Shown one piece after another: positions 17,912 through 41,775 of a stretch of DNA of 64,000 bases. Position 1 is the first letter of the stretch. Each line of letters begins with the position of its first letter. A program made the position numbers and the translations under genes. This DNA comes from Candidatus Heimdallarchaeota archaeon (lineage in GTDB: Archaea > Asgardarchaeota > Heimdallarchaeia > Heimdallarchaeales > Heimdallarchaeaceae). The notes beneath the pieces were generated by a model, which was given only the letters and a program-made list of their open reading frames with translations, was not told where the DNA came from and searched no databases. The stretch is taken from NCBI GenBank assembly GCA_030603365.1, contig JAUVXV010000006.1, positions 1 through 64,000 on the forward strand. The letters run 5' to 3'.

Positions 17912-19321
17912 CTAGATGAAATCTCCAGATTCTATCTTCTGAGGTAAATAGAAGTTTGTTATATATTGAGGATCACGAGCATTTAATGCTTGTATTTCAG
18001 CCTTGAATCCGCTATCTATTTGAATTTGTAGTTGTTCCTTCCATTTTGGTTTTCGTTGAACAAATTCTTCCTCTAACATGAGTTTAGATCTGTGGATATC
18101 TTTAGAAGATAGCTTTAAGAGTGCGCTTCTTGGGATATCAAAACCACTGTCTGCTGATAAATCACTTGGAAGAAGTCCTAACCATTTGATGCTAGGAACA
18201 GCTAAATGGCTTGATTCAAAACTAAGAGCTTTACTACCTACACTATAAACCCTCATAATCTCAAAACCATATGGATCAGCATCCATTATTGCAAAAATTG
18301 GAAGATTCAAATCATCATGAATTTTCTTCAAAAATTGTCTTGTAGCTACATCAGGCTGACCTTTAGCAGTTATTAAAATACTTGGAACATAGTCATAAAA
18401 CTGATCCTCAGCCAACCTATTGAATACAGCATCCTTTTCAATTACAAGACACATTTCTGCATCAGTATCTAAGCTTTCAATGTCGTCAATATTTGGTGAG
18501 ATAGCTTTTCCTGCGCCAATTGCGCGGCAGTTAATCAAGTCACCTTTCTCCCTAAAACTCAATCTTCCTACGACAATACCTTTTGATGAAGCACTTACAT
18601 TTAGTGACGAACGAGTAACCTGCAACATTGCACTAAGATCCTCAACAAGTGAATCAGAGACTGACTGTTTTTCAAATGAATTGACATCCATATAGAAGAT
18701 ATCTCTTTTAGTACTATGAATATCTCTTGAAAGAAGATCGTGGATTAACTTCATTATAATTGTCATCTGTTCTACTGAACTTACTGAAGAAAGACTTCTG
18801 AATTGTCTCTCAATCATTTGCCTACCAATTAAAACAAGTTCCTGTTCTTCGTCAAAACCAACATTTGTTCCTCCTCTAGAAGGAATGTAAAATGAAGCAT
18901 TGGTAGGATTTTCCATAGCTTGTTGAAGAAAATTCAAAGCATATTCAACAAGAAGATTATTAGTTTCTTGAGAATCTTTTGTTTCTACATGGGTAACACC
19001 ATAAGGCATGAAAAAATCTTTCTTTTGCATTAATTCTGCTTTTAAACCCTCAATTTTATCCAATAGAACATTTCGTTTAACACTTACTTTCATTGTTTGT
19101 TTCTCTAGAGAATAACGGGAGAGTTTTTTAGTAGGTTCTAATTCATACCATTTCTTTCGACTTCTTAAAAAGAGTACATATGTTCCCCTTTTTAAGTCAA
19201 AAGTATCTCTCGCCCAATTGTACATCTCTCTTGTGAGTACATCTCGATCAAAACTTGCACTGCGTTCTGTAGCAGGTAAAACTGTTGAATTTACAAATGT
19301 GAAATTATATTGTTCTGTCAT
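17912..19321 (-). CDS. top6A: DNA topoisomerase VI subunit A (Spo11 family) with about 85-aa N-terminal extension
   Basis: STKRDIFY (catalytic Tyr), VIEKDAVF, KGQPD, DADPYG TOPRIM motifs. ATGA overlap with top6B. Confidence 0.95.
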   Translation of the reverse strand: MTEQYNFTFVNSTVLPATERSASFDRDVLTREMYNWARDTFDLKRGTYVLFLRSRKKWYELEPTKKLSRYSLEKQTMKVSVKRNVLLDKIEGLKAELMQKKDFFMPYGVTHVETKDSQETNNLLVEYALNFLQQAMENPTNASFYIPSRGGTNVGFDEEQELVLIGRQMIERQFRSLSSVSSVEQMTIIMKLIHDLLSRDIHSTKRDIFYMDVNSFEKQSVSDSLVEDLSAMLQVTRSSLNVSASSKGIVVGRLSFREKGDLINCRAIGAGKAISPNIDDIESLDTDAEMCLVIEKDAVFNRLAEDQFYDYVPSILITAKGQPDVATRQFLKKIHDDLNLPIFAIMDADPYGFEIMRVYSVGSKALSFESSHLAVPSIKWLGLLPSDLSADSGFDIPRSALLKLSSKDIHRSKLMLEEEFVQRKPKWKEQLQIQIDSGFKAEIQALNARDPQYITNFYLPQKIESGDFI

Positions 19322-25300: not shown

Positions 25301-28300
25301 ATGTCTAGAATAATAGCGATAGTAGAAACATCTTCAGTGATGAAGGATAAGATATCTCCAACACCAGAGTATATTAGCTTCTGAACTTGTTGGTTAGTTA
25401 ATCCAATAAATGCTACTGATGCAAGATACAATTGCACTTCACGGAAAACATCCAGTTTCACAAGATGTGGGTGTGATTCTCTTAATTCTGCCATACGAGA
25501 ATTGAAATCTTGAATAGAATAGATTCCGAGCTTGTGGATTTTTTCTAAATAATCCTCTTCTATTGAAGGGAGTAAGGTAATAGGAATTGCTGCTTCAACT
25601 CTCTTGTCTGATAACTCGTCTAAGGAGAGAATATCAAGAGCATGAAATTCTTTGTAAATTGGATTTTGAGTAATATGAAAGAGTTCTTTTTTATCCAATA
25701 AAGCTAAATCAATTACTGAGTTTATTTCATAAAATTCTAAGCGTTTAATCTCATCAAAAGAGAAAAATCCAATAAATCTTATGGAACCAGAGAGAATTTC
25801 CTTGACTTTTTGATAATTTTTAATCGGAAGGATATCAGATATTCGTTGAGTTTCAGCAGAATAATACAGAGTTTCAATATCTATTATTCCTACATCCATT
25901 AACTTTTGGATTTGTTTTTCTGAAACTAATGAAGATTCAAGAATTTTATGAGTTTGTTCTTTTCTGAATGAAACTATTAGTTGATAATTCAAATTGTTCT
26001 GTATCTCGATGATATATCTTTTAGACAAACCAGTTATCTCTGAAATCTGTGAGATAGGTATTGAAAAGAAATCTATCAAAGTATTAACTGATGACTTACT
26101 TAATTTGAGAGCCATTTCTCGAGGTAATCCCATTGATGATATTGGTATTGCTAAGTCTTTGAGGAGAAGATTGAAGGAATCTACTTCCATGAGTTTAGCA
26201 TGGAATGGAGCTAGCCCAGAATGTTCAACTAAATCAATATCAAATACATCACCTATCTTAGTATTAGTATAATCCTCTCTCTGAATTTTCTTGATTTTAG
26301 TAAAGAATGGTGTTATTCGTAGAGGTAGCTCTAAAAGTGATCGAATTATTGTAAGATTGTAATTTTCAGCTTGATAGTGTTTATCTTTAGATAAAAGATG
26401 GGATATCACATTAGGGTCTGTTATAACATCCGACAAAGTTTTGTTTTCAAAATCCTGGACGATTTCTTTAAAGAACGAGCAATTATAAACTGATGATGGT
26501 AATTTTGAGAAGTAATGGAAAGACCTCATTTCCAGCATTTTCGAAGAGTTAGATGAAATTGATCTGTATAATAGTGGATCTGTAATTTCCTCATCAGGAA
26601 TGAATAGAAGTTGAAATACGCTTTTGATGTTATTTTGTTCCCAAACTTCAATTGAATACTCAGAGATTTCAGTAAATATTCTTAATGGAAGAGCCAATAC
26701 TTTTTGAACGGCTGATATTTTAGGCCACAATTCAGGATTCAGCTGGTAAAAGGCAGGATCACTTTCATAGAACAGTTCTTGAATCGTTTGAAATCTTTCA
26801 AATTGAAAGATTGAGTCTCTGCTTAACTGTCTTTGTTCCATCTTATCAAATAATCTTGTTTCAAAAGCAAAAATCCCTTTATCTTCATAAGCTGCTATTA
26901 TCCTTTGAGTAGTGAGTGAGGATTTTACTTCATCTATCTGTTTAGGAGGAATCTTCAGAAGTTTGTTTAGTTTCTGGGTCGATGTTAATATAAAATCTGC
27001 AATTGTAAGAATCTTATTCGCTCGAAGTAATTCAGTTTGCTCGAATGTTAGGGTTGGTAGGAAGTAACTAGGAAGTGAAAAATAACTGAGAATATCAGCT
27101 AAGTCTAAACCACGTTTAATATTCTCAATTCTCTCATCTGGAATACCAGTTCGTTCCATTAGACTTTCAGGAGAAGTAAGCATGAATCCAAGCAAAGTAA
27201 AAACACTAACTTCTTTTAAAGTATTAATTAATTCAGCATCGAGCATATCAGATATATGAGCTAGAGGAAGATTGAGAACTTGTTTGAAAGCTTCAACAGT
27301 ACTCCAAGGTAATATAGAATTATCCCATTTTACTTCAGAAGAAGAGAAATACAAATCTTCTAGAGTTAGAATATTAACCTCTTCAAGAGCTTTAACGATT
27401 TCAGGTTTGAATAAATCAAGTTCAGAGATATCAGTACCTGTATCACTAATTCGAATATTCTTTTGGAAGCTTTTTGCTTCTTCAATGTTGAAATTAAGAT
27501 AGGAAGCTATGTCTTCAGCTTGACTAACTATTAAATCGATAATCCTGGTTATACCATTATTCTGCAAGACATTTAATTGGTCAGTTGAGAGAGTTGTTAT
27601 TTGGTCTTCTTCAATTGTTTTTGTTCCTTCTTCTCCTTCAATTCGAATGGTTTTCTTGACTTTTTTCTCCCAAGCTACAAGAGTCAAAGGAGATCTTAGT
27701 AGTTTTCTAAATTTGTCAACTACATTCCAATGAACAAGAGACGCTGAAAAAATCATTGGATGTGCTAGATAGAATATTTTGTCTATTGTATCATAACCCG
27801 CAAGAATTAGAGATTCAATTTCGTGAGTAGAAAATCTTTCAGAATCTTCAAAATCAAAGGAGACTAAAGATCTGAATCTATTTCGATCCATTTTTTCAAA
27901 AAAGATTGTTCCTTGTTGTTCAAGTTGAAAATCACTTAAGAGATCAATAATTTCTTGTTCTTCTTTATCTAAAAATGATGCAAGCTCTGCGGAAGTATAT
28001 TCAAACAGCTGATGAACTGCAATAATTCCTTTTGCTCTTAAGCTTTCATAATCTGCAAGAGTTAATTTTGAAATTCTCGAAACAGGTAAATCTAATGCTC
28101 TTTGAAATTCATGAAATTCACTAATTATCAACACTTGTTTCTTAAATTCATCAGTTCCATCTATCTTACGTGTCTTTAATATTTCGTATAACTCAAGTGC
28201 TGCATTTCTCTGACTGGTATTACTCAGTTCAGATTCAATAATTGCAGGAATCAAATCTAGGAATTGTTTTATTGTAACAATATTTCTAGCCTTCAATCTT

Positions 28301-31300
28301 AGAAGAGCTTCTTTTAATTCAGGAAGTCTCTTGTGATTTTTATCAAATAAATGTGATAACTCAATAATCTCCATTTGTGACAATTTGCTTATATTTTCTA
28401 TCATTAACCAGTATCCTTCGGTAAAATGGAGTTTCTCAGAAGGATAAAGATAATATAAATCCTGTATTGTAGGATTTGTGGTTTTAAAATATTCTATTAA
28501 ATTCGGAAAAATTCCTTTGAACAAGCTTAAATCTTTGCCCAAATTCTCTTTATTCCTTTGAAATTCTGAAAATGAGATGTTCTTCTTCATTGACTTAATT
28601 TTATTTTCAGATGTTTCTAGAATTACAGCTAGTTCATCATCTGGCCAAATAATGAATCTTCCTACACAGTTTAGTCCTACTTCTCTTATTAAATGGGAAA
28701 TATCTCTTAAATGTGGATAAATAAAGATAATTGGTGAGCGTAAGAAAACAATCAGATCAAGATATTTTTTCTTATCTTCTGCATTCATGGAATATACTTC
28801 TGGAGAATTGAAAAGAAGTTCCTCAAACACATTTATACCATACTTCCTGAGAAGCTCTTGGTGTTCCAACCACTCTGGAAAAGGGGTTCCAAGAGCTCTT
28901 TTCATTCTCTCAGATTCACGCTTGTTTAATCCCATTTTCTTTAGTTCTGGAGATGAATATGCAAGAAATGCTGAAGAAGTAAATACTTGATTTTTATGGA
29001 GCTCTTTTTCTAAACCTGCAGGAATAATCTTTATGTGAGCTGTGCTATGATCGTACTCTTTCTCGCTCAAAGTTTGTTTTAATTTTCTTTTTGATTCTTC
29101 TAATAACAGAGGCAGAAGTTGTTTTAACTTTGGTTCATAAATTTGATCTGCTGAAAGATTAATCAATTTAGCTAATGTAGTAATACCTTTAGTAGCTAAA
29201 TTCTTTATTAAGGCACTTTCTTGTGTTTTCATCTCTTCATTTGAGAAAATCACAAAATCTGCAAGTTTAGAAGAGGGAGAGTCTTTATTGAGAATTTTTA
29301 GATATGTCGCATAAAGAATTCTTTCCAGCTCTTTCACTAGTATAAGATCATCAGTTGAAGCTGTTACAAAATCCTCTATTGTTCTTATTTTTCTTCTATG
29401 GAAAGCGTTCTTTGTATACCCATCTGTCCAATCAGGTTTCATTTTTGTGATATTGGTACTTCTAAAATTGGGGAATTTAGTTGATAAAGTGTTGAAAATA
29501 TCTTTAAGATGTTCAACAAGAACAACAGTAATTTCTGCCTGGTAATTTATATCATTTGGATAAATTAGCTGATACAAGAATTCTTCCACTGATACATCTG
29601 CTGAAAGAAGTTCTCTAGACTTTTGCTTCAATTCTTTGAAAGTTGGAAAGAGGTGTTGTATTTTTAGTTGAGAAATAGTAGTTAGTTTGTTTAATTCATT
29701 TATTGAACCACCAGCTCTTATAGAACCATCTGATTTTCTGTTCTTTAAAAGTAGTTGATTTATTAATTCATCTTTCTTGTTTTCAAACAGCTTTTCAGCA
29801 AATCCATATACTGAATGTAATTTATCATATTCGGTTGCAAGAAAATGATAGCTGTTTTGAATCCATCTTCTATTCAACGCATCCCTTAGAGAAAGTGTTG
29901 ATTTACCATCTTTCTTATCGAATCTTCTTTCGACTGATCTAGTTATGAAAATTCTCGAATCTAAATCAGGACTTAATCCTTCTCTATCAAGCTCGTAAAT
30001 CGTTCTTAATTTGATGTTATATACTTGAACAGCTGGTAGCTGAAGGATAGTCGCTAATTCAGGTGTAGGAGTAAGGAGAAAATCAGAAATAGATAAAATT
30101 CTTTTTGCTTTCAGAGAGTTTTGTATAGGTTTGGGGCACCATATATCTAAACCGAGCAATCTTTTACTTAAAGGCATAAACAACTTTGCTTTTTTCGGAA
30201 TTCCATGAGCTAAAGCGGAAGCTATTCTATTTTTCTCAAATCTAAAATCTGCAAGAGGGAGGTCTTCATCTTCTAAAATCTGTGTTAAGTTATCTATAAT
30301 GACTGGAGCTGATTTTACAAACCGAGAGAGACGTGCATGTTCTCTTCTCTTTCTTTTAGCTCTGCCTAAGAAAGTTTTGAGTCGTCTCCCTAATTGTAGT
30401 AATGCTAATCTAATCTCTTCTTCAATTTCAGGAACTATAGAGATATATTCTTTGCTTGTTTCAGGAAATGGAATTTTAGTACTTACTAAAGAAACTGCAA
30501 CAGCTAGAGGGTCCGACTGACGAGTAAGTCCATATTCATTCCAACGTATTGAAGAAACAACATGTGTTATAACATCATTTCCTGCTCCAAAAATAAGAGG
30601 AATACGATTAGCGTATCTGTATATTATCTTATTATCTTGAACTGTAGCACTTCGAGCTTGAGATGCTTCATTTACTCCTCCACCATATCCTAATGCAACT
30701 TCAATCACAAAAGGATGACCAGAATAAGCTTTTGCTGGTCTTGAAATTGCTTCAACGAATTGAGGAGTAAGTTCCTTTTCTAAACCTTTCCTTAATCTTC
30801 CTGCACCTAGTGGAGATAAGGATGATCCCTTGGGACTCTCAAACTGAAAGACTCTATCTCTTTTTCGTTTAACATCCTTAGCTTCTTGATAAGCCTTAAC
30901 AAAGCCTTCGTGAACAATCCTTCGAATTTCATTTGAGGTTAAATCCTTAGGATTTTTATTTGGATCTATTTCTAAGAGTTGAAAGAAATCCTCTGCGATA
31001 TCCTCAGTTACACCCATAAAATGTTCAGCAAGAAAAAGTTTGAGCTTTTTGCTTTTGTTAGCTCCTAATTCAGCTTTGAACTGAGTAATATCACATCCCC
31101 AAGGATGAATCTTAACATATTGGGGAGGTTCTGGCATATCATCTACAACGCTTTCATAAATAATCTCATCATATTCCCCTTCTTTATCTCCTGGAACTAC
31201 AATATTGAAGGTAGAATAAGGAGTGATTATCGCAAGTTGTCTGAAATACTCTTTTACGCTATTTTTTGCTAGACTCCAAGCACCGGTAAATGTAATGCTG

Positions 31301-31878
31301 ATTTCAGTACCAGGTTCGTCTAGATAGTTTGGATCACCAGGGAGATATTCTCTCTGTTCCATAATCACAGGTTCATTCTTTTCTAAATTAATCATCAAAT
31401 GCATTTCATGTGTAATATCATCCATGAAATAACGCGAGCGAATTCTAGCGGGTAAGTCAACTGAAGACATTGAGTATAACAAGCACATTTTGGCTCCCAA
31501 TCCAAAACGTCCACGTGTCTGAATTACTCCATATTTAGTACCAGTTAGAACTCTTCCAAAAAGATCTGCAATTTGATGTCCAGGTACACCTGTACCATTA
31601 TCAGTGCAGGTTAGTTGGAGAAAATCAAGATGTTTTTCTAGCTTCTTATATTGCTTAACATCCAATAACTCATTGATTTCTCTACTGGAAAGTTTCCTTA
31701 AATCGATTCCTATTATAGGATTTATCCCTCTTTTTTCTGCTGCATCCAAACCATTTTCTACCAATTCTCTAATGCTGGTAAAGACAGCACGCATGGAATT
31801 TCCAAACCCAGCAATAGCTCGGTTATCATTGAAAAATGCTGCTGCAGACATCTTTTTTGTAACTGAAGTATCAGACAC
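19318..31878 (-). CDS. top6B: Giant (4186 aa) DNA topoisomerase VI subunit B: GHKL-H2TH-transducer core fused to a long HhH-like repeat array
   Basis: ELVENGLDA, DNGTG, RGRFGLGAK, GTEI, RYANRIPL, WNEYGL, ETSKEYI in the first ~540 aa. Then repeated L-x-x-x-GI-x-TI-x-DL modules and a K/T/S-rich tail. One unbroken 12.5-kb ORF. Confidence 0.92.
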   Translation of the reverse strand: MSDTSVTKKMSAAAFFNDNRAIAGFGNSMRAVFTSIRELVENGLDAAEKRGINPIIGIDLRKLSSREINELLDVKQYKKLEKHLDFLQLTCTDNGTGVPGHQIADLFGRVLTGTKYGVIQTRGRFGLGAKMCLLYSMSSVDLPARIRSRYFMDDITHEMHLMINLEKNEPVIMEQREYLPGDPNYLDEPGTEISITFTGAWSLAKNSVKEYFRQLAIITPYSTFNIVVPGDKEGEYDEIIYESVVDDMPEPPQYVKIHPWGCDITQFKAELGANKSKKLKLFLAEHFMGVTEDIAEDFFQLLEIDPNKNPKDLTSNEIRRIVHEGFVKAYQEAKDVKRKRDRVFQFESPKGSSLSPLGAGRLRKGLEKELTPQFVEAISRPAKAYSGHPFVIEVALGYGGGVNEASQARSATVQDNKIIYRYANRIPLIFGAGNDVITHVVSSIRWNEYGLTRQSDPLAVAVSLVSTKIPFPETSKEYISIVPEIEEEIRLALLQLGRRLKTFLGRAKRKRREHARLSRFVKSAPVIIDNLTQILEDEDLPLADFRFEKNRIASALAHGIPKKAKLFMPLSKRLLGLDIWCPKPIQNSLKAKRILSISDFLLTPTPELATILQLPAVQVYNIKLRTIYELDREGLSPDLDSRIFITRSVERRFDKKDGKSTLSLRDALNRRWIQNSYHFLATEYDKLHSVYGFAEKLFENKKDELINQLLLKNRKSDGSIRAGGSINELNKLTTISQLKIQHLFPTFKELKQKSRELLSADVSVEEFLYQLIYPNDINYQAEITVVLVEHLKDIFNTLSTKFPNFRSTNITKMKPDWTDGYTKNAFHRRKIRTIEDFVTASTDDLILVKELERILYATYLKILNKDSPSSKLADFVIFSNEEMKTQESALIKNLATKGITTLAKLINLSADQIYEPKLKQLLPLLLEESKRKLKQTLSEKEYDHSTAHIKIIPAGLEKELHKNQVFTSSAFLAYSSPELKKMGLNKRESERMKRALGTPFPEWLEHQELLRKYGINVFEELLFNSPEVYSMNAEDKKKYLDLIVFLRSPIIFIYPHLRDISHLIREVGLNCVGRFIIWPDDELAVILETSENKIKSMKKNISFSEFQRNKENLGKDLSLFKGIFPNLIEYFKTTNPTIQDLYYLYPSEKLHFTEGYWLMIENISKLSQMEIIELSHLFDKNHKRLPELKEALLRLKARNIVTIKQFLDLIPAIIESELSNTSQRNAALELYEILKTRKIDGTDEFKKQVLIISEFHEFQRALDLPVSRISKLTLADYESLRAKGIIAVHQLFEYTSAELASFLDKEEQEIIDLLSDFQLEQQGTIFFEKMDRNRFRSLVSFDFEDSERFSTHEIESLILAGYDTIDKIFYLAHPMIFSASLVHWNVVDKFRKLLRSPLTLVAWEKKVKKTIRIEGEEGTKTIEEDQITTLSTDQLNVLQNNGITRIIDLIVSQAEDIASYLNFNIEEAKSFQKNIRISDTGTDISELDLFKPEIVKALEEVNILTLEDLYFSSSEVKWDNSILPWSTVEAFKQVLNLPLAHISDMLDAELINTLKEVSVFTLLGFMLTSPESLMERTGIPDERIENIKRGLDLADILSYFSLPSYFLPTLTFEQTELLRANKILTIADFILTSTQKLNKLLKIPPKQIDEVKSSLTTQRIIAAYEDKGIFAFETRLFDKMEQRQLSRDSIFQFERFQTIQELFYESDPAFYQLNPELWPKISAVQKVLALPLRIFTEISEYSIEVWEQNNIKSVFQLLFIPDEEITDPLLYRSISSNSSKMLEMRSFHYFSKLPSSVYNCSFFKEIVQDFENKTLSDVITDPNVISHLLSKDKHYQAENYNLTIIRSLLELPLRITPFFTKIKKIQREDYTNTKIGDVFDIDLVEHSGLAPFHAKLMEVDSFNLLLKDLAIPISSMGLPREMALKLSKSSVNTLIDFFSIPISQISEITGLSKRYIIEIQNNLNYQLIVSFRKEQTHKILESSLVSEKQIQKLMDVGIIDIETLYYSAETQRISDILPIKNYQKVKEILSGSIRFIGFFSFDEIKRLEFYEINSVIDLALLDKKELFHITQNPIYKEFHALDILSLDELSDKRVEAAIPITLLPSIEEDYLEKIHKLGIYSIQDFNSRMAELRESHPHLVKLDVFREVQLYLASVAFIGLTNQQVQKLIYSGVGDILSFITEDVSTIAIILDISEKEVRKYLDKIEPISLAKEVNRKGVKIEEFPVLRKSTINYLLKSDKEYVQDVYSHYYQAFTITNVSDEVVKDFLGNCNISIFRIKEISTETKLKLSQMGVLRIIDFLCVNDTELKKVFDGSIPNEISEIRKGQFSLDRGTPLLLNEPIKNLLRDLYFDPDKKTVEDLFGFVPEHLLQFSEFERIEKISNISFVEQLVSFLSLSIFSLPYFDMETKIALRHNGVHHVIELISAKVQMMENTSPAVNRTIREFQVNFNLTKIMSETFSPFLNQAIKLPNEMSERFRSYGLTTGLFLFDFVQHPLFSFTDKEKRVSSNVTFNFFQPVSWLYDVINLDVKNFNRLRDKQATNILTAQLLFTESKSKPEIVAFPDSIISKFNRAINDEVIDLKPPSWAIKLVDMALITDSKFLKKLKTKKIFYLEELIAADSQIVSDNKISSEIKPILYSLRNFNISSVDGLSPVQIQKLKQNGIHNVFQFLSLPPPMISKITGQTVEKIIALITQIDLSDLESSAKLVGLDIDLFTEISDNVKNLLKEHGCVSLTQAANLKLDQLAISQEDKKSLTQLVSMLLSPITIIGKVLKLSKKEVDELLSNNVLTYTDLLEVPQQKWSASIKRLISRQKTNPNYLIKRLHDIKKFGVSIEKLGLKKAITESLISAGITTIDHLLYLPSHHITSRSKLKEEDFEELIIKLNSSPSLIPGFSKELLIYIYNKEHYTIADLLVNFHNLSKEHVKTILDGVDTIKNIEELKFKDPLSTTEKYIIGKEFHSYTSLLTSKRFVEDKRMFSRVAPYLLANIRYLELENKVEAALKRADIKTIADLLIVSQKTIATQARTSITKIREIIMSINIDDVESKIISKQDSHLRDAFFLTDRDKDFLKSVGVFNLADLREYSVYPWIVSDSRIDKIIGRIGSILQTPILYYKELLKLPFYEIEKNYLMKGIYSVQELMTLSEQKEIDNITEFLRTFSASTEKIKEDFITIIQIFNEAEFSSINQDLKAKNLTLFNELLLEMYIKYNKLSSENQKILQILKHPISASSKFNSTDIEILSSKNIYTFVDLLIKPSSYWPTFAPIKLKTKIQELIPTLTFGKIKSDINKRIKISSIKIFNPNIRKELSSYYQTIDELILDIANDNYRISKSVINSVEKILTTSILLIKLPKIPLKGWKKISKGLKEIGDLYRLTNKELASSLSIPANDVKKLIINLTPDNILKPPILKANKILSSTDIIELNKLGLRDYIKLLEMISSKNTIPKNLKEKINTLVKLDVKKIEPKITESLTLIELLFLFPNLQSLSLSKSQKDILQRTSDFIFSKGTELCNVLNIDQANQKLQCPDLSLEYLLLLHSFDEKLYSSILSGLPEQYDTQIKELFVYLERPPILLSEPTIENINQIATQEFESIAELLLEPKQSLFSVVTDKTLQRNIRNISLNLLKELKNNLIKFPAKLFTTSELNTLKRNSIYSVEEALLFSKRAKSKGTKEWQLCQRLKNIMTLQLNDLPTLIEDKEAFAYATKNKLATIYDLLAHCKHKSGSEAICKDILPLIRFDSLAELITNEQRRLSNFVKETDINTNLKKRDLRTFGSLYNYIEQVGVQGLEPDLEKLLSVLRAPISILTNDRSFLSKLDNLGYSQVFDLLLPADISSLLTKSKLSDKQNISAKTMIMKLSFVNIADIITADCYPINIVSFIDDTTKRQLIRAGYSTISHLNVSDEILMKTSGLKTLLLSRIKKILNTPFYYLSDLIRENPTSLFILYSKGFSVINDLFVSNCKQLSSQISVPERQLKTILSTLTNQSIKLAQKDETALKVSLPYIENQEIQKLGAAGITSIQELLFPKKETRKSSALTLAKVEKLVQYLDKEIEELDVKADILEQIKQLGISNFKEFVFYPSTVLDSQVNLSYMGIKSLKNRLPLKTTKTSKAKKTTPTKTTVKKTPSTGSKPKSSTSTKKPATKATTKSTRPKSTKQTTLMDMGSESKRIQTSTTSSNGSSKSKSRSSGK
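19600..30150 (-). repeat. Protein-level array of about 50 degenerate HhH / RadA-N / alpha-CTD-like modules within Top6B (boundaries approximate)
   Basis: Examples: NLATKGITTLAKL, VLQNNGITRIIDL, SLISAGITTIDHL, ALKRADIKTIADL, KLGAAGITSIQEL. Not repetitive at DNA level. Confidence 0.75.
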
Positions 31879-32233: not shown

Positions 32234-33490
32234 ATGTCAAGAATGAAAGCGATTCTAAAACGAGGAAAGAAGAAAGATAGAGATTATCCTAAGCAGGTTA
32301 ATGGTTTCTTAGAATTTAATTATAGAGGAATCATTTCTGACAATAGAACAGAAGAAAATCCATTAATTGGTTGCGAGAGTTCTGATACACTTTATCTAGA
32401 AGGAGAGTATAGAGAAACTCCAGTAAGTTTAATCCTAACTGGAAGTTATGGTGAAGCGATTTCTGAAAATTTAAACAAGAGATTCAGCAACTCCAATCCT
32501 TCAGCAATTTATCTTGGTTTTAATACTGATTTTCAAAAATCTTCTGATCTTCCCAGTATTGTATTACCACCAGAAGATAGAGAAATAAACTCTTTTCTTC
32601 AAGGAAAGAACTGGTACCAAAAGAACGAAGAGAGAATCAAATCTTATGTAAAAAAAGCTATTAGGAATACTTCAATTGCATTCATTTTTTTAGACAATAA
32701 TCCGTTCATACTTGGCTTAATGCAAAATGTCATTACTTACATCAAAGATATGAAGACTCAACCTGTTCTATTCTTGCATCTTCCTTCAGAAGTAGACAAA
32801 ATAAACGAAGAATTCTCAATTCTAGCTTTTATCTATAATATATTGAAAAAAGAGACTTCTTTTAATGCACCAATCGTAATCGTAGATGAAAAATACGCAT
32901 TGAAATTAAATTCGAACATATCTATAGAAGAAATGCGAAACATGATTATTCAAAGAGAAGCTAATTTAATAGCAGATTTACTTTTAGGAATCTCACAATC
33001 ATCAAATTTCTATCATACAGATCAAAGCAATTTTGACAGAATTTTTAGAGAATCTAATGGAATTTGTCAGCTATTTAGTTTGGATATTTATGATAATAAT
33101 CCAGATCTATCATACCTGTTTAAACGTCATAAAAAAGCTTGTAGTTTTTTAAGCACTGAAAAACCTACTCGGGGATACGTAATTATACAATCTGGAAATG
33201 AAGGTTTAAAAACTGAAATCTACCAGAATATTAGAGAATTTTATGGAAATTCAGATGTGATACTTTCAATATTAAGTAAGAGGGCTAATGGTGCAATTAT
33301 TAGAGGTGTTTATAGTTTTATTTCTACTCCTAGAAATCTTTTAGATAGATATTCAAAATTTGACAAAGTGTCAGTTTTGTTATATGACATTGAAGATCAA
33401 GTTAAAGCAGTAACAAAAGAAAAATTGTATGAAGAGGTTCTAAATGCTAAAAGATTTGAGCTAAAATTATTAGAAGAAGTGAAAAAATAA
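32234..33490 (+). CDS. Degenerate FtsZ/tubulin (CetZ-like) fold protein lacking the GGGTG(S/T)G motif
   Basis: LILTGSYGEAISENL (T1), GFNTD (T2), AFIFLDNNPFILG in place of T4, LFLHLP, IVIVDE, TDQSNFDRIF (T7). Shares IRGV with 39597..40736. Confidence 0.55.
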   Translation: MSRMKAILKRGKKKDRDYPKQVNGFLEFNYRGIISDNRTEENPLIGCESSDTLYLEGEYRETPVSLILTGSYGEAISENLNKRFSNSNPSAIYLGFNTDFQKSSDLPSIVLPPEDREINSFLQGKNWYQKNEERIKSYVKKAIRNTSIAFIFLDNNPFILGLMQNVITYIKDMKTQPVLFLHLPSEVDKINEEFSILAFIYNILKKETSFNAPIVIVDEKYALKLNSNISIEEMRNMIIQREANLIADLLLGISQSSNFYHTDQSNFDRIFRESNGICQLFSLDIYDNNPDLSYLFKRHKKACSFLSTEKPTRGYVIIQSGNEGLKTEIYQNIREFYGNSDVILSILSKRANGAIIRGVYSFISTPRNLLDRYSKFDKVSVLLYDIEDQVKAVTKEKLYEEVLNAKRFELKLLEEVKK

Positions 33491-33657
33491 GAACCTAGTT
33501 CAGTTATGCAATCAATTTTACAAAGTTGAACCATAAAACATATTAATATTCTATCTTGTTCTTCGTTAAAGTTAAATCTAGTTGAAGGATAGTGTTGTCG
33601 TTAACTTTAAATATCTATCCTAAAACGAGACATCAAAAGTAAATATGAGGATTCACT

Positions 33658-36600
33658 ATGGATAAAAGACTTCGAGTTTTAATAGGTACTTTAATCTTAG
33701 TTGTTACAATTGGCTCAGCTGTAGTGATTGGAATCATCCTTCCTAGAACTTCAATATCTCTGATGAATGAAATCAACTCGAGATTAAATGAATATGGCCG
33801 ATTAAACGACAATGATTTCATTCCACAAGGTGGAATCGAAACCCCATCAGATTGGATGTATACCAACATCTCTGATGTAGATTCAAGATTTTATGATCAA
33901 GCTCATATCGAATTTTTCAATGTAAGTGACCGTGAAGGATATTTAGATTATAATACGCCTATAGCTTATTACTTCGTTCAAGGAGAGCTTGTTTTTGATA
34001 TTACTATAAACAAAACAGTAAAAGCTTACAATATTGAAGATGATTATGTTGTTTATGCTCAAAGAAAACAATACACGTTTAATGAGACTGCATCGTCTTT
34101 AAGTCCTAATGCAACTGTTTTGAATTTTAATTATATGTGGCCTTACTATATAGCTAATTTTGGAAATGGATCAGAGTACGGATTTCAAGCATATATGGCT
34201 GCTTATCTGATTGAATCAGAACTTGAATTAATCAAAGATATTAAAGGATGGACAGATTCTGAAGTAGCTTATGCTACACTAAATAGAGGATATGCTGAAG
34301 CAAATGGAATTGTTGATTTAGGGATATATCTTCCTCATAATTGGATTAGTGTTCGTCCAGCTTATCAAAATCTAGATTTTGACCAAGCAACAAGTTACAA
34401 AATATTCTTCAATGCTACATATAATGGACATGACTATTCTCTGATAACAGGAGAATATGGTTCCCAAAAATATTTCCTTGATATAGTACGAGGATTGTAT
34501 TATGACTCCGGAGATATTACTATAGACCCAGTTCAACTTTTAGCAGACATTTATGGCATAGATACAGCTGCAGAAAGATTATCTGCAATGTCTTTAGCAG
34601 CATATTTGGATTATCTATCAAATCAACCATCATTAGATTGGTTATACGACAATAAAATATCATATGTATGCTCTAGAACTGCAATGGAATGGGTAATGGG
34701 TATTGAGGATCCACTCTTAGGTGAAACATTCCCTCTACTTAAGAATGAAACCATTTCAAGCGACAGTATTAATTGGGATACCGATCTTTATTATGCAGAA
34801 AAATTGGGTACAAATAATATTAAAGACATAAATCAAATCATCGGAATAGCTAACATTCCTTATTACCATTATGCAGAATCAAGTGATGTCACTGTTAGAG
34901 GGAATTATTCATATGTTCAAGAAGGCAATGATATAAAAATTGTTAGAAATGATCATCCTCTATTTATGGCAATAGGTCAATTTGGCGATTATGATGGGGT
35001 CATAGAAGCTTTTGATGTTAATGGAGATCTCATATACGTTGCAGAAGGAACAAACGGATTAGAGATAATTGATGCTTTCAATAAAAGGTATATGGAGAAG
35101 TATTTTCAATGGAGTAATTTTGGTATTGATGATATCCGAGATTTAGAAATTCTTTACTTTGATGAGAACGGTGCTAATGCAACCATGGTTTTTGCAAATG
35201 GTGAGTATGGAACTGTAGTTCTTGTAGAAATTGATGCTGCTACAGGTTTACCAACAGATAATTTCTGGTCAGAAACTGCTGATGGGTCAGTTTATGCAAT
35301 TGATGTAGTAAATGACACATCTTATGCAGCTTATGCAGCCTTGGGACCTGATGGAATTAATACTTTCACAATCGATGCAACAGGATCAGACATTATTACA
35401 CTTGTAAATCACTACACCTCTTTAGACTTTCCTGAACTTACTAATGTCTTAGATGTAAAAGCTGAAGGTTTTTACCTATATGTTCTAGATGAAGTAGAAG
35501 GATTGTTGATATTCCAACTTAGTGCAGCTGGAGTAATCAATTCTCTTGTAGGACAATACACATTCCTTCCAACTGATTCTCATTATACTAACTTCCACCT
35601 AGATATTGATAATGACTTAATTTATCTAACTCAAGGAGAAGATGGTCTAGTAGTAGTTGATATTTCCTCTAAGTCAAGTCCATCAGAAGCATATCGCTTT
35701 ACAGGTGTTGATCATAAGGGAACAGCTTTAGGTGTATATGTAAATGGAACTGATGTTTATCTAGCAGATTTCGAAGAAGGTTTAGTTCATTTACAAATAC
35801 AAGAAGGAACAGGAACCATTGAAGTAATTGCAAAAGACGAACTTCATTCATTTATAGAGAGCTGGCAAAGAAACAGTAGAACTCAATTAGGAGGCTGGGA
35901 TCTTGGTCCAACAGCTGAAATTGAAGGTATAAAATTCAATAGAACATATGCCTCATATTCAACATATCCAAATATTGACAAAGGTTTAAGACTTCAATGG
36001 TCAGATCTTTTCTTAAGACCATTCTCTTACACATCTGAAACAGATACAGCACTTTTCTTTGATGAAATAGTCTATTACTATAAAGCAGAATATCAAATTC
36101 CATATCGTCAGATGGAAGAATTTGATCTATATTGGATGCATGATGCAAACTTTATCAACTCAAGTTACATCTATGTTGGACGATGGGGTCTAGAAACTGG
36201 ATTAGATTTAGATCCTGATGACTTTTTCATAACACATTCGTTGCCAGGACAACCAAGAGATCCTTTCCACATGCATGAAATGTTTGTTGAACCAGTAACT
36301 GGAAGTGTAGTTGAAAGAAGAGATAGAATTCAATACAATAGTATAGCAAGAAAATATATTGAGTTTTATGATTATCTTGATCCATTCAAATTCGGATTAA
36401 ATGAAGAATTCTTTGATCCTGAAGCTGATTTAGAACCTTATCAATTCTATAAAACATGGCATACAACATTTCCAGGATTAGAAGGAGGTATGGGAACAAT
36501 CTTCTGGCAAGAAGATGTCCATCATGCAACTGAAGTATTCTATGATGATATCAAAGAACTGTTCCTTAACAGAATTAAAGGAGCAGATGCTTCCAGAACA

Positions 36601-36690
36601 GGTGGAGCATTTGGTGCTATGTTTTTAGTTACTGTTGGATTTGTTGTAACTTCAGTAGTTCTACAAAGAACAAAACCAAAAGAAGATTAG
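33658..36690 (+). CDS. CD36/scavenger-receptor-B-like two-TM protein with inserted LVIVD beta-propeller repeats
   Basis: N- and C-terminal TMs. EFFNVSD, YAQRKQYTFN, RTAMEWVMGIEDPLL, VEPVTG-x6-RIQYN, IFWQE. LVIVD units (LIYVAEGTNGLEIID, LIYLTQGEDGLVVVDIS). Confidence 0.7.
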   Translation: MDKRLRVLIGTLILVVTIGSAVVIGIILPRTSISLMNEINSRLNEYGRLNDNDFIPQGGIETPSDWMYTNISDVDSRFYDQAHIEFFNVSDREGYLDYNTPIAYYFVQGELVFDITINKTVKAYNIEDDYVVYAQRKQYTFNETASSLSPNATVLNFNYMWPYYIANFGNGSEYGFQAYMAAYLIESELELIKDIKGWTDSEVAYATLNRGYAEANGIVDLGIYLPHNWISVRPAYQNLDFDQATSYKIFFNATYNGHDYSLITGEYGSQKYFLDIVRGLYYDSGDITIDPVQLLADIYGIDTAAERLSAMSLAAYLDYLSNQPSLDWLYDNKISYVCSRTAMEWVMGIEDPLLGETFPLLKNETISSDSINWDTDLYYAEKLGTNNIKDINQIIGIANIPYYHYAESSDVTVRGNYSYVQEGNDIKIVRNDHPLFMAIGQFGDYDGVIEAFDVNGDLIYVAEGTNGLEIIDAFNKRYMEKYFQWSNFGIDDIRDLEILYFDENGANATMVFANGEYGTVVLVEIDAATGLPTDNFWSETADGSVYAIDVVNDTSYAAYAALGPDGINTFTIDATGSDIITLVNHYTSLDFPELTNVLDVKAEGFYLYVLDEVEGLLIFQLSAAGVINSLVGQYTFLPTDSHYTNFHLDIDNDLIYLTQGEDGLVVVDISSKSSPSEAYRFTGVDHKGTALGVYVNGTDVYLADFEEGLVHLQIQEGTGTIEVIAKDELHSFIESWQRNSRTQLGGWDLGPTAEIEGIKFNRTYASYSTYPNIDKGLRLQWSDLFLRPFSYTSETDTALFFDEIVYYYKAEYQIPYRQMEEFDLYWMHDANFINSSYIYVGRWGLETGLDLDPDDFFITHSLPGQPRDPFHMHEMFVEPVTGSVVERRDRIQYNSIARKYIEFYDYLDPFKFGLNEEFFDPEADLEPYQFYKTWHTTFPGLEGGMGTIFWQEDVHHATEVFYDDIKELFLNRIKGADASRTGGAFGAMFLVTVGFVVTSVVLQRTKPKED

Positions 36691-36715
36691 AAATAATCTT
36701 TTTTCTTATTTTATT
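36681..36715 (+). terminator. Hairpin plus T-tract between convergent genes
   Basis: AAGATTA-GAAA-TAATCTT followed by TTTTCTTATTTT. Confidence 0.55.
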
Positions 36716-36726
36716 ATTCTTCATTT

Positions 36727-38169
36727 TTATTTATCAGAAATAATTTCGTTCACGTCTAACAGTTGGATTGTATGAGTTTTACCAGAGATTCCAACCATTG
36801 ATCCTGCAACAAGTACCACATTATCAGTTTTTTCTAGATATTTTTGCTCATGCATTTTCCTAATTACATTGTAAACTAACATCTCATAGTCTTGTTCAAA
36901 TTCATGTAAAAATGGTTTTACACCCCAGAATAAACGGGTAACCCGTTTAGTAAAATGGTCTGGGGTTACTGCAAAAATGGGAAGGTTTTTCCTGTTTCGT
37001 GAAACCATACTTGCTGAATAACCAGTCTGAGTTAGTGCAATAATTGCTTTTGCAGACATTCTTTCTGCAAGTTGAACAGCTGAAATACCTATTTCCTTTC
37101 CTATATTTGCTTCAGAATCAGCTGTTAAAAGCATAGGCATATCTAGTGATAGATTTCTTTCAGTTTCACAGATTATTTCCTGCATTGTCTTAAGAACATG
37201 TAAAGGATGTAATCCAGTTGCAGTTTCAGCTGATAACATGAGAGCATCAGCACCGTCGAAAACTGCATGAGCAACATCACTTGCTTCGGCTCTTGTAGGC
37301 AGAGGTTCTTTAGTCATAGATTCGAGCATTTGAGTAGCAACGATAATAGGTTTAGCATATGTCATCCCTAATTTAATTAGCTTCTTCTGAAGTACAGGAA
37401 CTTTAGCAAGACCTACCTCTATTGCTAGATCACCTCTTGCAACCATTAAACCATCACTATATTCAATGATTTCTTGAATATTATCCAAGGGGTCTTTGTG
37501 CTCAATTTTAGCAATAAGATTAATGTTTTTGTTTGTATTTGATTCTACTATTTCTTTGACTTTCTCAAGATCATTTACACTTCTTACAAAAGAGATGAAA
37601 AGAAAATCAGTTTCAAGCTCACATGCTTTTTTTAAATCCTTGATATCCTTAGGAGTAGGAACTCTAATCGATAGATTAGCATCCGGAATATTGATCCCTT
37701 TTCTTGATGAAATCTCTCCACCATCCATAACAGTACAAATAACTTCATTTCCTTTAATCTCTTTAACATCCAACTTTACAAGACCATCATTAATGAAGAT
37801 TGAATTACCAGGAGTAACCTCTTTAGAAAAAGAAGGAAGATTAACAGGAATTAAATCATCCTTACCAACAACATTCCGTGATGTTAGAGTAACGGAGGTT
37901 TTCCTCTTAAGAAGAATCTTACCTTCTAAATTACCTAATCTAATCTTAGGTCCGCTAATATCTATCCCAATAGCCACATCATTGCAGATATTGCGAATTG
38001 ATTCAAATATTTGTTCATGACTTTTATGATCACCATGAGAAAAGTTTAATCGAGCTACATCCATACCTGAATCAATCATTTTCTTAAGAACATCAGTAGA
38101 GCTAGATGCTGGACCAATAGTACAAACAATCTTAGTTAATCTCAATATTATCAATAGAACTATTATCAA
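36727..38169 (-). CDS. pyk: Pyruvate kinase (likely start TTG 38145)
   Basis: TKIVCTIGPAS, ARLNFSHG, IAKIE, MVARGDL, ATQMLESM, DALMLSAETA. Confidence 0.97.
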   Translation of the reverse strand: MIIVLLIILRLTKIVCTIGPASSSTDVLKKMIDSGMDVARLNFSHGDHKSHEQIFESIRNICNDVAIGIDISGPKIRLGNLEGKILLKRKTSVTLTSRNVVGKDDLIPVNLPSFSKEVTPGNSIFINDGLVKLDVKEIKGNEVICTVMDGGEISSRKGINIPDANLSIRVPTPKDIKDLKKACELETDFLFISFVRSVNDLEKVKEIVESNTNKNINLIAKIEHKDPLDNIQEIIEYSDGLMVARGDLAIEVGLAKVPVLQKKLIKLGMTYAKPIIVATQMLESMTKEPLPTRAEASDVAHAVFDGADALMLSAETATGLHPLHVLKTMQEIICETERNLSLDMPMLLTADSEANIGKEIGISAVQLAERMSAKAIIALTQTGYSASMVSRNRKNLPIFAVTPDHFTKRVTRLFWGVKPFLHEFEQDYEMLVYNVIRKMHEQKYLEKTDNVVLVAGSMVGISGKTHTIQLLDVNEIISDK

Positions 38170-38239: not shown

Positions 38240-39595
38240 ATGGAATCAACTTCTCCAAAATCAATTTCAGTAAAAGCAAAAATTGTTGAACCTGAAGTTG
38301 TCGAATTACCTAAGTATGAATTCGAAGATATGATAAACGAGCATTACAAAAGATTTCCAAGAACTGCTGAAATGGTTGAAAAACCACGGTTTGTGCGTGC
38401 ATTAAAAGAACCTTTTAGAAGATTTTATCTCCTACCTGTTGCACTATTTGGATTAAAATTAAACACAATTCTATCCTTACGATGGAAAAATTATATGAAA
38501 CTGTGGATTTATATTTCAATTCTATTTATACCGACTATTATTTTCACTATAATACCACTCGAATCAGCATTTGAGGGTTTTTCTAATCTAAGATGGATAA
38601 CAGATATCTTGTTTAATGTAGGTACGCCAATACTGATAGCAATATTACTCTCATTATTCTATTTGAAATATACACATGATGGATTTCTAGGATTAGTTCA
38701 AGCTAAAAGAGTAGAATTTATAGAAAAACCTGTAAGGGAATATTATGCAAAATACTATGACAAACCTTTACCAAGAAATCCTTTAATCATTCTGGCATCT
38801 CTTGCTACTGGTATTGGAGTTCAAATCCCAATTCTTCAAATCTCTATCACAGCAGGGTATCCAGTAGCAACTGCGTTTGGAATTCTTGCATGTATTTTTA
38901 ATCCATTCCTCTTCTATATCTTCTTTTTAGCTTCTTACTACATGATTTTGAATACAAGAATCTATGCTAAAACCTTGAAACCATTCAAAGAAAGGATGAA
39001 CGTTTATCTTAAAGAATATGGAACTCTTCTAAGAAAAGACAATTATGATATGATTTGGTCACTTGGTGATAAATGGTCTAAGGGAAGATCTATAAGTCAG
39101 CTTGAAAACATACCTACAGCTGGTATCGTATCAACACTGATTATTATCATTGCAATGGGAATGGGAAATGCAAATGAGTTAATTTACGGAATTAATAATG
39201 GGATGCCAACCCACGGTATAAATTTCTTGTTCCTTAATTCCGATCAACTAATGACAGTCCTTGTTGTAACCATCTCAGCTTTAGTTGCAGCTTTAATGGT
39301 TTTCATAATCTTTATTCCCCTAATAGCTTTTAATGGAAAAGCTAAAAAATTCAAAATTAAAGCTCTGATGGAACTTGATAACTATATCTTTGCTAGTGTA
39401 GTAGAATTTGGAGAGAAGTATTCTGAAGTGGCCAAACAAGAGAGCGTTCAGATGTTACAACTTCGTGAATATATAGCTTCAATGAGAACTTTTCCAATAT
39501 CAACTCAAAAGATATTCAGAACAATTATGGCAATAGCTCTTTGGGTTGTAAATATATTCAAAATTATCAAATCAGTGGGATCTGGAGTGGTTTAG
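38240..39595 (+). CDS. Polytopic membrane protein, unknown function
   Basis: About 7 hydrophobic segments; ends 1 nt before the FtsZ/tubulin-like gene. Confidence 0.75.
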   Translation: MESTSPKSISVKAKIVEPEVVELPKYEFEDMINEHYKRFPRTAEMVEKPRFVRALKEPFRRFYLLPVALFGLKLNTILSLRWKNYMKLWIYISILFIPTIIFTIIPLESAFEGFSNLRWITDILFNVGTPILIAILLSLFYLKYTHDGFLGLVQAKRVEFIEKPVREYYAKYYDKPLPRNPLIILASLATGIGVQIPILQISITAGYPVATAFGILACIFNPFLFYIFFLASYYMILNTRIYAKTLKPFKERMNVYLKEYGTLLRKDNYDMIWSLGDKWSKGRSISQLENIPTAGIVSTLIIIIAMGMGNANELIYGINNGMPTHGINFLFLNSDQLMTVLVVTISALVAALMVFIIFIPLIAFNGKAKKFKIKALMELDNYIFASVVEFGEKYSEVAKQESVQMLQLREYIASMRTFPISTQKIFRTIMAIALWVVNIFKIIKSVGSGVV

Positions 39596-39596
39596 A

Positions 39597-40736
39597 ATGT
39601 CCTGGCTAAAGAAAAAACTGTTTAAGAAGAAAATTTCTATTGCTGTTATAGGAGTAGGAAATGCAGGATGCAGAATAGGTGATAAACTTGTTCACCATCT
39701 AAGAGAAAGTAGAATAACTGTCAAGTCATTAGCTATTAATCAGAGTGACAACTTTGATCCTAAGGTGAATAACTTCGCTGACCATTATTGGTTTGGTTCA
39801 AAAGACTCACCATCTTCAGATTATGAACTAGAAAGAGTTTTAGAACAATTAACTCAAAATGAACAACAATTACAGGATCATATTGAAAAGGTTCTTTTCT
39901 ATAAAAAACATGATAGAAGAGATGTGGAAGATTTAGCTCTGCATTTAATTGTTGGAAGTGGTGGAGGGGCTGGTAGTGCTGGTGCTATGAAGGTTAGTAA
40001 GATTATTGCTGAACAAACTGGAGTTCCCCCTACTGTTATTTTTGTTATCCCAGAGAAAAATGAACCATCACTAGTTCAATATAATTCAGCTAGAGCTCTT
40101 CACTATCTAGGATTTGATTATCAAGGTCCTAATTGTCCAATAATTCTTTTTGATAATGATAAATTATTGAACTTATTCAAAGAAGAAACTATTGAAATAG
40201 CCTTAGAAAAGAGCAATGAGTTCTTAGTAGATTCTTTAACAACAACAATACTAGCTGCACTCCAAGAAAGTACTCACGAAGAATTCAACGCAGATTTAAC
40301 TGATTTCTTTCAATCGTTCACAGAAGAAGCAAGGGGTCTAGGAGTAATTATTTCTTTAGACAAGGAATTTGAATCACTAGAAAAAGCACAGAGTATTAGG
40401 TTCTCAGATTTATTCTTTAACGAACTTGATGAGAGTTCAAGTCTCACAGCTGACATAACAAGAGCAAAACTTGGATTTCTAGCAATTACTTCCCCAACAA
40501 CTTATCAAGCTACATTTGAGACAAGAAAGATTGTTAAGAAATTCGAACGAGGAAATATTAAAGTATCTCTCAATTCTATTGATGAACCTATTTTAACTAT
40601 AAGAGGGGTAATTACAGGAATTCACCCAGATTATGTTGAAAGGTTCTGGGAAGTGCTAGAAAAAGGTAGAGATAGTCGTAAGAAGGTTGTAGAGACAGAA
40701 GAGAAACTGAAGCAAGCTTATATGAAACTTGAGTAA
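39597..40736 (+). CDS. FtsZ/tubulin-superfamily GTPase (CetZ-like)
   Basis: VIGVGNAGCRIGD (T1), LAINQS, GSGGGAGSAG (T4 variant), FVIPE, ILFDNDKL, NADLTDF (T7). Confidence 0.82.
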   Translation: MSWLKKKLFKKKISIAVIGVGNAGCRIGDKLVHHLRESRITVKSLAINQSDNFDPKVNNFADHYWFGSKDSPSSDYELERVLEQLTQNEQQLQDHIEKVLFYKKHDRRDVEDLALHLIVGSGGGAGSAGAMKVSKIIAEQTGVPPTVIFVIPEKNEPSLVQYNSARALHYLGFDYQGPNCPIILFDNDKLLNLFKEETIEIALEKSNEFLVDSLTTTILAALQESTHEEFNADLTDFFQSFTEEARGLGVIISLDKEFESLEKAQSIRFSDLFFNELDESSSLTADITRAKLGFLAITSPTTYQATFETRKIVKKFERGNIKVSLNSIDEPILTIRGVITGIHPDYVERFWEVLEKGRDSRKKVVETEEKLKQAYMKLE

Positions 40737-40773
40737 GAATTTGAATTCTTACATTCTCATTCTTTTTTAATAG

Positions 40774-41775
40774 ATGCAAATCGATATAAAGATACAAACT
40801 TCTCTTATCTTGAATATAATGAGTGTTACCCGAGATTGCCCAAACTGCTTTCGGAAAATAAAAACATCATCAAAATTCTGCAAATTTTGTGGAACCACTC
40901 TCAAGATTTGTCTAGAATGTCAAACTATCAACAAAGCTAATGATGCTTTCTGTGCAGAATGTGGGTTCGATATTAAAGATGTAGAAGTAGCTGAGGGTTT
41001 TTCAGAGGTAACAGATTCTGTCGAAACTAGTTCAGAAGAGGATTTTACTCTTACAGAGGATGGAGTTGAAGAAGATCAAATAAAGCAAGAACGAAAATTA
41101 GTGATGTGGCCACCAATTTCACAATCAAGATATCTTTCGCAAGCTAGACCTCAACCAAAAGTAAAACCATATATGAAATATCTAGAGGAAGGACCTAGTT
41201 ATGAACCTAAAAAGCTAAGCTATACATATAACAGAGTAAGATTGCTAGGATTTCTCAGTGGACCTTTACCAACCTCTAATGTTTTAAGTTCAGTAGTAGA
41301 AGCTTTTGGAATTGCTTTAGCTCTAATAGCTGGTGGGATAGTGATTTTTTCCATAGGGATGGCATTCTTTCAATATATTATCTTTCCAATTATTGCAGGA
41401 ATAATAGGTGGAGCTTTATTATTATCGGCACCTTTCTTTGGTATCTATTACGTTAGTTCAAATTGGTTGTATAGAGCATTCAAAATTATGAGACCAGTAA
41501 AACTGAAAACTATTGTATGGAATTATACTCTAGCTTCTCTAATATTTTCATTGATAGGATTAATGTTTGCACCAATTTTATTAGAAGGAGGAGCTTTAGG
41601 AATTACTCTAGCAGTAGTTGGTGGGATAGTATACACAATGGGGTTAATAGTTGTACCTCTAAAAGCATATTTAGCAGATCTAGTATATGTTAAAGCTGCT
41701 GTAGACCTCAGGGATTCAGAACCAAAAGAAGAAAAAGTAGTCACTAAAGAAAACAAGAAAAATGGGGAGAAATAA
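40774..41775 (+). CDS. Double zinc-ribbon protein with C-terminal multi-TM domain (likely start ATG 40819)
   Basis: CPNC...CKFCG...CLEC...CAECG, acidic linker, 4 TM segments. Confidence 0.8.
   Translation: MQIDIKIQTSLILNIMSVTRDCPNCFRKIKTSSKFCKFCGTTLKICLECQTINKANDAFCAECGFDIKDVEVAEGFSEVTDSVETSSEEDFTLTEDGVEEDQIKQERKLVMWPPISQSRYLSQARPQPKVKPYMKYLEEGPSYEPKKLSYTYNRVRLLGFLSGPLPTSNVLSSVVEAFGIALALIAGGIVIFSIGMAFFQYIIFPIIAGIIGGALLLSAPFFGIYYVSSNWLYRAFKIMRPVKLKTIVWNYTLASLIFSLIGLMFAPILLEGGALGITLAVVGGIVYTMGLIVVPLKAYLADLVYVKAAVDLRDSEPKEEKVVTKENKKNGEK

Follow-up and report, generated by a model that had tools for sequence, protein, structure and literature searches.

The eukaryotic class B scavenger receptors (SR-Bs; Pfam PF01130), which include LIMP-2/SCARB2 (structures 4F7B and 4Q4F), CD36 (5LGD), SR-BI, the insect SNMPs and LmpA-C of Dictyostelium, are two-pass membrane proteins with both termini in the cytoplasm (N-in/C-in) and short tails. 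SR-B has been inferred in the last eukaryotic common ancestor, the family is linked to phagocytosis, the apex is the evolutionarily labile part of the SR-B domain, and the broadest survey covers Eukarya only (PMC10715195). A prokaryotic CD36-like barrel has been solved for the actinobacterial lipid trafficker LmcA/PgfA (MSMEG_0317, Rv0227c; DUF3068, which is Pfam PF11271 'PorA') (PMC8972800). For Asgard archaea, we found no publication that mentions a connection with scavenger receptors, CD36 or LIMP-2, including in the supplements of PMC10307638 and PMC12872458. Here, we describe a gene in a 64,000-nucleotide stretch of contig JAUVXV010000006.1 (the window) from a Candidatus Heimdallarchaeota archaeon of the Heimdallarchaeaceae; the gene occupies positions 33658-36690 on the forward strand and encodes P0001, a CD36-like two-pass membrane protein of 1010 residues. 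Taking all the evidence together, we propose that P0001 is likely a rebuilt CD36-family surface receptor of the Heimdallarchaeaceae.

P0001 is a type III (N-in, C-in) surface protein with the topology of the CD36 family. Hydrophobic segments are present at residues 7-29 and 982-1003 only, the tails outside them comprise 6 and 7 residues, both basic, and one large ectodomain lies between. The first transmembrane (TM) helix (33676-33744), identified by hydropathy and contained in a modeled helix of residues 3-47, follows the six-residue cytoplasmic tail; the second (36601-36666), identified by hydropathy and aligned with the C-terminal TM helix of the canonical Asgard CD36 proteins described below, precedes the seven-residue tail. 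The motifs of the family, i.e. an FFNV-type start, RT..E(L/W)..G..DP(L/F)L, (V/I)EP.TG, R.Q.N and W.E, occur in this order at residues 86, 340-354, 877-882, 890-894 and 950-952 in invariant or near-invariant columns and align with the same motifs in Asgard CD36 proteins, which in turn align with those of LIMP-2. N-glycosylation sequons are present at twice the expected number, and the protein is probably N-glycosylated. The terminal TM helices, the CD36/LIMP-2 motifs and the many N-x-S/T sequons listed in the original prediction, which was made from the DNA alone, were all confirmed by hydropathy, alignment and sequon count. P0001 and the eukaryotic SR-Bs share topology, motif order, a sequon-rich ectodomain and a lineage-specific expansion of the apex, while P0001 differs in its archaeal host, in ~500 extra residues (a propeller and an enlarged head), in a far more diverged core and in having a fold and tunnel that are predicted. 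LmcA, in contrast, has a signal peptide and one C-terminal TM helix and lacks an apex bundle and a propeller; PF11271 did not match the P0001 family in a Pfam scan of 27 orthologues.

Evidence for the identity of P0001 comes from a comparison with other Asgard archaea. A Pfam scan of 400 Asgard genomes detected strong CD36 proteins in 28 of the 370 genomes outside the Heimdallarchaeaceae; they are distributed over five families, including sister families of the same order as the source archaeon. These canonical Asgard CD36 proteins (loci L039-L054, e.g. L039:2073-4826, L043:1901-4228 and L050:549-2372) have 600-1370 residues and two terminal TM helices, match Pfam CD36 with E values of 2e-51 to 2e-98 and, when used as a profile, detect LIMP-2 with an E value of 2.8e-74 and CD36 (5LGD) with one of 7e-67. 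All of them are named 'hypothetical protein' at NCBI. Their apex carries an insert of 230-700 residues without a Pfam match. These matches indicate that CD36-type receptors also exist outside the eukaryotes. Six-frame Pfam scans of the source genome and the rest of the Heimdallarchaeaceae detected no canonical CD36.

We compared a profile of the P0001 family (A1) with a profile of 16 canonical Asgard CD36 proteins (A2) using hhalign and found three blocks that are colinear (N, middle, C) and define three homologous core segments in P0001. The N-terminal core segment (residues ~60-158; 33835-34131) contains the FFNVS sequon, three long beta-strands and an N-x-N-..P.Y motif, is modeled with a predicted local distance difference test score (pLDDT) of 75-90 and, together with the first TM helix, scores 44.1 over 143 columns (E 4.9e-4); its orthologous regions match positions 74-183 of the Pfam CD36 profile. 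The middle segment (residues 336-404; 34663-34869), with RTxxEW..G.EDPLL, a conserved NET sequon and G.NNI..I..II, scores 39.9 over 60 columns (E 1.6e-3) in the block RT..EW...DPLL...G.NDI and corresponds to profile positions 144-237 in the orthologue P0043. The C-terminal core segment (residues 727-981; 35836-36600), containing W736, LRP, SLPG..H871, VEPVTG, RIQYN and FWQE as well as a family-specific loop of ~45 residues at residues ~898-940, gives the highest score (70.3, E 2.9e-7, probability 93%) and matches profile positions 346-405. By comparison, the maximum score of 22 decoys, consisting of reversed profiles and 20 column-shuffled ones, was 28.3.

Searches with single sequences point in the same direction. 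In BLASTP, P0001 matched the 603-residue CD36 protein P0192 of a Kariarchaeaceae archaeon with E values of 1e-6 in the C-terminal part and 0.006 in the N-terminal part. In a joint alignment of the C-terminal halves of the P0001 family and canonical CD36 proteins (A3), W736, H871, G882, R890 and W950 are invariant. At E<0.1, Pfam CD36 matched 16 of the 27 orthologues, the lowest E value being 9.6e-7, and three orthologues, with 27.3, 27.1 and 28.1 bits, exceed the gathering score of 26.5 bits, which is an operational threshold rather than a biological feature. The matches in the orthologues are colinear with the profile (residues ~105-268 on positions 74-223, 317-402 on 144-237 and 861-911 on 361-402), and in a six-frame Pfam CD36 scan of the genomes of the family, ~21 of 24 weak matches lie in the P0001 gene or in consistent fragments at contig ends. 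Given the Pfam matches of the orthologues, the profile-profile comparison, BLASTP and the joint alignment, we regard the homology of P0001 to CD36 as established at the level of sequence; we hold with high confidence that P0001 belongs to the CD36/SR-B family, as the original prediction had it. Besides the terminal TM helices and the colinear core segments, P0001 and the canonical Asgard proteins (P0192 and the 775-1367-residue proteins of L039-L053) share the W/H/G/R/W residues, the VEP.TG..R.Q.N and W.E motifs, the sequon at the FFNVS/WNLTNP position and a large insertion at the apex. They differ in that the canonical proteins lack the propeller and match Pfam CD36 with E values on the order of 1e-51 to 1e-98, as opposed to 7.7e-4 for P0001. 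We suggest that P0001 evolved fast from the type of CD36 protein that has stayed recognizable in other Asgard archaea.

Two additions distinguish P0001 from a simple CD36 core. First, an all-helical, family-specific expansion of ~175 residues (residues 159-335; 34132-34662; helices in the model) occupies the position of CD36's apical three-helix bundle; its score against the apex insert of the canonical Asgard proteins is at the level of decoys, i.e. there is no detectable similarity. Second, residues 405-726 (34870-35835) form a confidently modeled seven-bladed LVIVD beta-propeller (PF08309) with repeats above the gathering score. In hhalign, the canonical Asgard CD36 protein of L039 has 7 residues (685-691) opposite residues 396-732 of P0001, indicating that the propeller is a clean insertion of ~330 residues; the loop that received it aligns with the 'NGKT|SLDWW' stretch of the LIMP-2 chain. 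The LVIVD propeller predicted to be inserted in the ectodomain is therefore borne out by the model as well as by the alignment. As in other PF08309 surface proteins, the propeller has seven blades, and it is 30-38% identical to the arrays of large prokaryotic proteins; however, it is single and nested in a loop of another domain, whereas theirs are arrayed in giant multi-repeat proteins. Within the P0001 family, the helical apex is the most conserved part (42 of 177 columns invariant, compared to 11/99 in the N core and 19/171 in the C core) and the propeller the least (16/322).

The reading frame proposed at 33658-36690 is a genuine gene, as documented by ~40 full-length orthologues with 40-74% identity, all from metagenome-assembled genomes of Heimdallarchaeota/Heimdallarchaeaceae and named 'hypothetical' or 'LVIVD repeat-containing' at NCBI. 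Using the N-terminal 410 residues as a query, we detected one copy per genome in 27 of 30 genomes of Heimdallarchaeaceae and none in the 370 other Asgard genomes; a search for shorter, propeller-less forms of the family returned fragments only. With phmmer against 1.8 billion representatives, P0001 matched seven full-length clusters, the remaining matches being to LVIVD repeats. Hence, the propeller-bearing CD36 variant is single-copy and found only in Heimdallarchaeaceae.

The structural models are less informative than the alignments. The full-length AlphaFold2 model of P0001 has a mean pLDDT of 66, with values below 50 over residues 731-834 and other stretches of the core, and the Foldseek and VIA-align lists obtained with it are filled by propellers. 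A model of the C-terminal half, built on an alignment including canonical Asgard CD36 proteins, reached a pLDDT of 55; it matched other structures through its long TM helix only, with no CD36 or LIMP-2, and Foldseek returned nothing at E<=0.001. Because both models are of low confidence in the non-propeller parts, we regard both fold searches as uninformative rather than negative, speaking neither for nor against the asymmetric beta-barrel with an internal tunnel that is characteristic of CD36. A tree of C-terminal halves, including a single eukaryotic sequence, placed the P0001 family on a stem of ~3.3 changes per site without fixing its position; the eukaryotic sequence itself sits on a long branch, and the tree does not tell whether descent ran from archaea to eukaryotes or the other way.

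Several of these observations, together with others, weigh against P0001 as a CD36-family receptor. The barrel lacks confirmation in the models, and the stem in the tree attests to a very diverged core, whose tunnel may have been lost or repurposed. P0001 itself matches Pfam CD36 with 18.5 bits, below the gathering score, and the Pfam CD36 search without the insert that the original prediction had suggested, run on the N- and C-terminal parts separately, gave no CD36 match. HMMER searches of PDB sequences with P0001 and with the family profile detected no CD36 or LIMP-2, and when the profile of canonical Asgard CD36 proteins was run against all ORFs of the source genome, P0001 ranked third with an E value of 0.044, which is not significant. 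P0001 contains one cysteine in total and thus none of the three disulfides of mammalian and insect SR-Bs; of note, several canonical Asgard members contain no cysteine at all. Finally, none of the sequencing runs listed is an RNA dataset with this stretch. Two further searches were also without a significant result: a six-frame Pfam CD36 scan of the source genome gave nothing at E<=1, the first-look filter having probably missed the weak match, and in hhalign the P0001 family aligned with one eukaryotic LIMP-2-like protein (P0195, from Artemia) with an E value of 0.017, FFNV being correctly placed on FFNV.

How might such a protein function? In our proposal, the CD36 core gained the helical head of ~175 residues at the position of the apex and the complete seven-bladed propeller in a loop, and P0001 would function like its relatives. 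Specifically, the head and/or the propeller would dock a hydrophobic ligand, a lipid-bearing particle or a partner surface outside the cell, and lipid-like molecules would subsequently move through the barrel, between the docked ligand and the membrane's outer leaflet. With 6-7 residues, the tails are too short for signaling by themselves. By analogy to its relatives, transfer of a lipid or another hydrophobic ligand is a function that we put forward tentatively, as somewhat less than an even proposition, and the role as a lipid- or particle-capture receptor in the original prediction would likewise follow from family membership. This role overlaps with the two alternatives considered next, and the three are not mutually exclusive.

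The alternative that survives best is that P0001 is a CD36-derived scaffold without lipid transfer, i.e. an envelope adhesin or cell-contact protein in which the head and the propeller bind and the barrel is a stalk. The extreme divergence of the core, with ~3.3 changes per site along the stem, favors this idea. It is also favored by the family-specific head being the most conserved part, and by the typical occurrence of LVIVD propellers in large surface proteins of prokaryotes, the best matches outside the family having 1000-6000 residues. On the other hand, conservation is lowest in the propeller, and the five residues that are invariant with canonical CD36 sit in the core of the barrel, suggesting that the core is still under the constraint typical of the family. 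On balance, we consider a purely adhesive function unlikely.

The second alternative derives from the gene neighborhood. As the original prediction noted, the CD36-like gene lies directly downstream of a degenerate tubulin-like gene, and both the ORF map and the orthologous loci agree with this. The upstream gene (32234-33490, forward strand) encodes 418 residues without a Pfam match and is not part of the CD36-like protein; in 16 of 18 loci of P0001 orthologues from five genera, it directly precedes the orthologue in the same orientation, these loci coming from kin genomes so that the counts are not independent. The pair is inverted as a unit relative to a pyruvate kinase gene, a gene for a protein with seven TM helices (7-TM) together with a tubulin-like GTPase gene, and a giant Top6B gene, all of which remain nearby across loci; the neighboring GTPase, for its part, has a tubulin Pfam match. 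From this arrangement, P0001 could belong to a membrane module that is coupled to the cytoskeleton and also comprises the degenerate tubulin paralogue, the tubulin-like GTPase, the 7-TM protein and a zinc-ribbon membrane protein. P0001 would be the arm that binds ligands outside, and the module would connect surface capture with uptake or the shaping of membranes. The conserved position of the tubulin-like gene, the inversion of the pair as a unit and the persistence of the surrounding genes speak for such a module. However, given tails of 6-7 residues, any coupling would depend on the TM helices or on further proteins in the membrane. Moreover, in two genomes (G017 and G022) the CD36-like gene is intact while the degenerate tubulin-like gene was not found at the locus with this query, no tubulin-like gene neighbors the canonical CD36 genes of Asgard archaea, and among kin genomes the gene order was perhaps inherited rather than selected.

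The intergenic region further weakens a tight functional link between the two genes. The gap between them is 130-245 nt across loci, and in the window it contains a TATA-box-like element read from the sequence, TTTAAATA (33603-33610, forward strand), ~48 nt 5' of the ATG, as well as GAGGA 6-10 nt ahead of the ATG. TTTAAATA and GAGGA are a possible promoter and ribosome-binding site of the P0001 gene, which may therefore be transcribed independently of the tubulin-like gene. A T-rich stretch (36691-36730) follows the stop codon, and the pyruvate kinase gene, which is convergent, shares it. The TATA-like element, GAGGA and the T-rich 3' stretch are consistent with the P0001 gene being a separate transcription unit. 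Altogether, we regard a role as the arm of a cytoskeletal module as improbable.

Lastly, P0001 could be an unrelated surface protein with two TM helices whose short motifs resemble those of CD36 by coincidence. The score below the Pfam cut-off, the PDB and source-genome profile searches and the fold searches with low-confidence models could be cited for this idea, but it is already disfavored and highly improbable given three colinear hhalign blocks that all surpass the 22 decoys, Pfam matches in the right order of the profile in 16 of 27 orthologues with three above the cut-off, the BLASTP match to a bona fide CD36 protein, the same topology and shared invariant residues.

Returning to P0001 as a rebuilt CD36-family receptor, this interpretation has implications beyond the single gene. 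The Heimdallarchaeaceae are often placed nearest to eukaryotes. The boldest scenario would be that CD36-type receptors pre-date eukaryotes and arose in Asgard archaea, and that one copy in the Heimdallarchaeaceae was rebuilt, by gaining a propeller and a new head, as the outward-facing arm of a tubulin-like cytoskeletal membrane module capturing lipids, vesicles or partner cells. We give this scenario only a slim chance; if true, CD36 would be a eukaryotic signature protein that has been overlooked and that belongs to the lipid-handling machinery of phagosomes and lysosomes. With the Asgard CD36 genes and P0001, the family's origin can be put to the test, i.e. inheritance from Asgard archaea versus transfer into them. 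For structural work and studies of lipid transfer, Asgard CD36 proteins would also provide prokaryotic versions free of disulfides, the propeller-in-loop arrangement a natural example of a CD36 scaffold tolerating a whole additional binding domain, and the pairing with the degenerate tubulin-like gene a concrete hypothesis for coupling between surface and cytoskeleton in Asgard cells.

The canonical Asgard proteins also resemble the actinobacterial family. PF11271 (listed as 'Porin PorA', i.e. DUF3068) matches their C-terminal half, e.g. residues 422-596 of P0192 (L050:549-2372); it exceeds the cut-off once (32.5 versus 29.5 bits) and is weaker in L039 and L041. By sequence, and with the solved CD36-like barrel of LmcA, Asgard CD36 proteins may form a bridge between the eukaryotic family and the actinobacterial one. 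Two CD36 genes occur in some genomes of family f20 and are in tandem in G264 (L048:1864-4311 and L048:4825-7527); in G274, both copies are on contig C4.

In the window, the surroundings of the CD36-like gene at 32234-33490 and 38240-41775 are kept across the five genera, with inversions of the pair. The giant gene is an ORF of 4186 residues with a GHKL/Top6B-like N-terminus (19318-31878, reverse strand); in each of the 18 loci that we examined, it stays beside the CD36-like gene, with 46-87% identity. The best public DNA matches to 32234-36690, from which we make no claim about habitat, are cold-seep and marine-sediment metagenomes, containing at most 0.41 of the sampled words.

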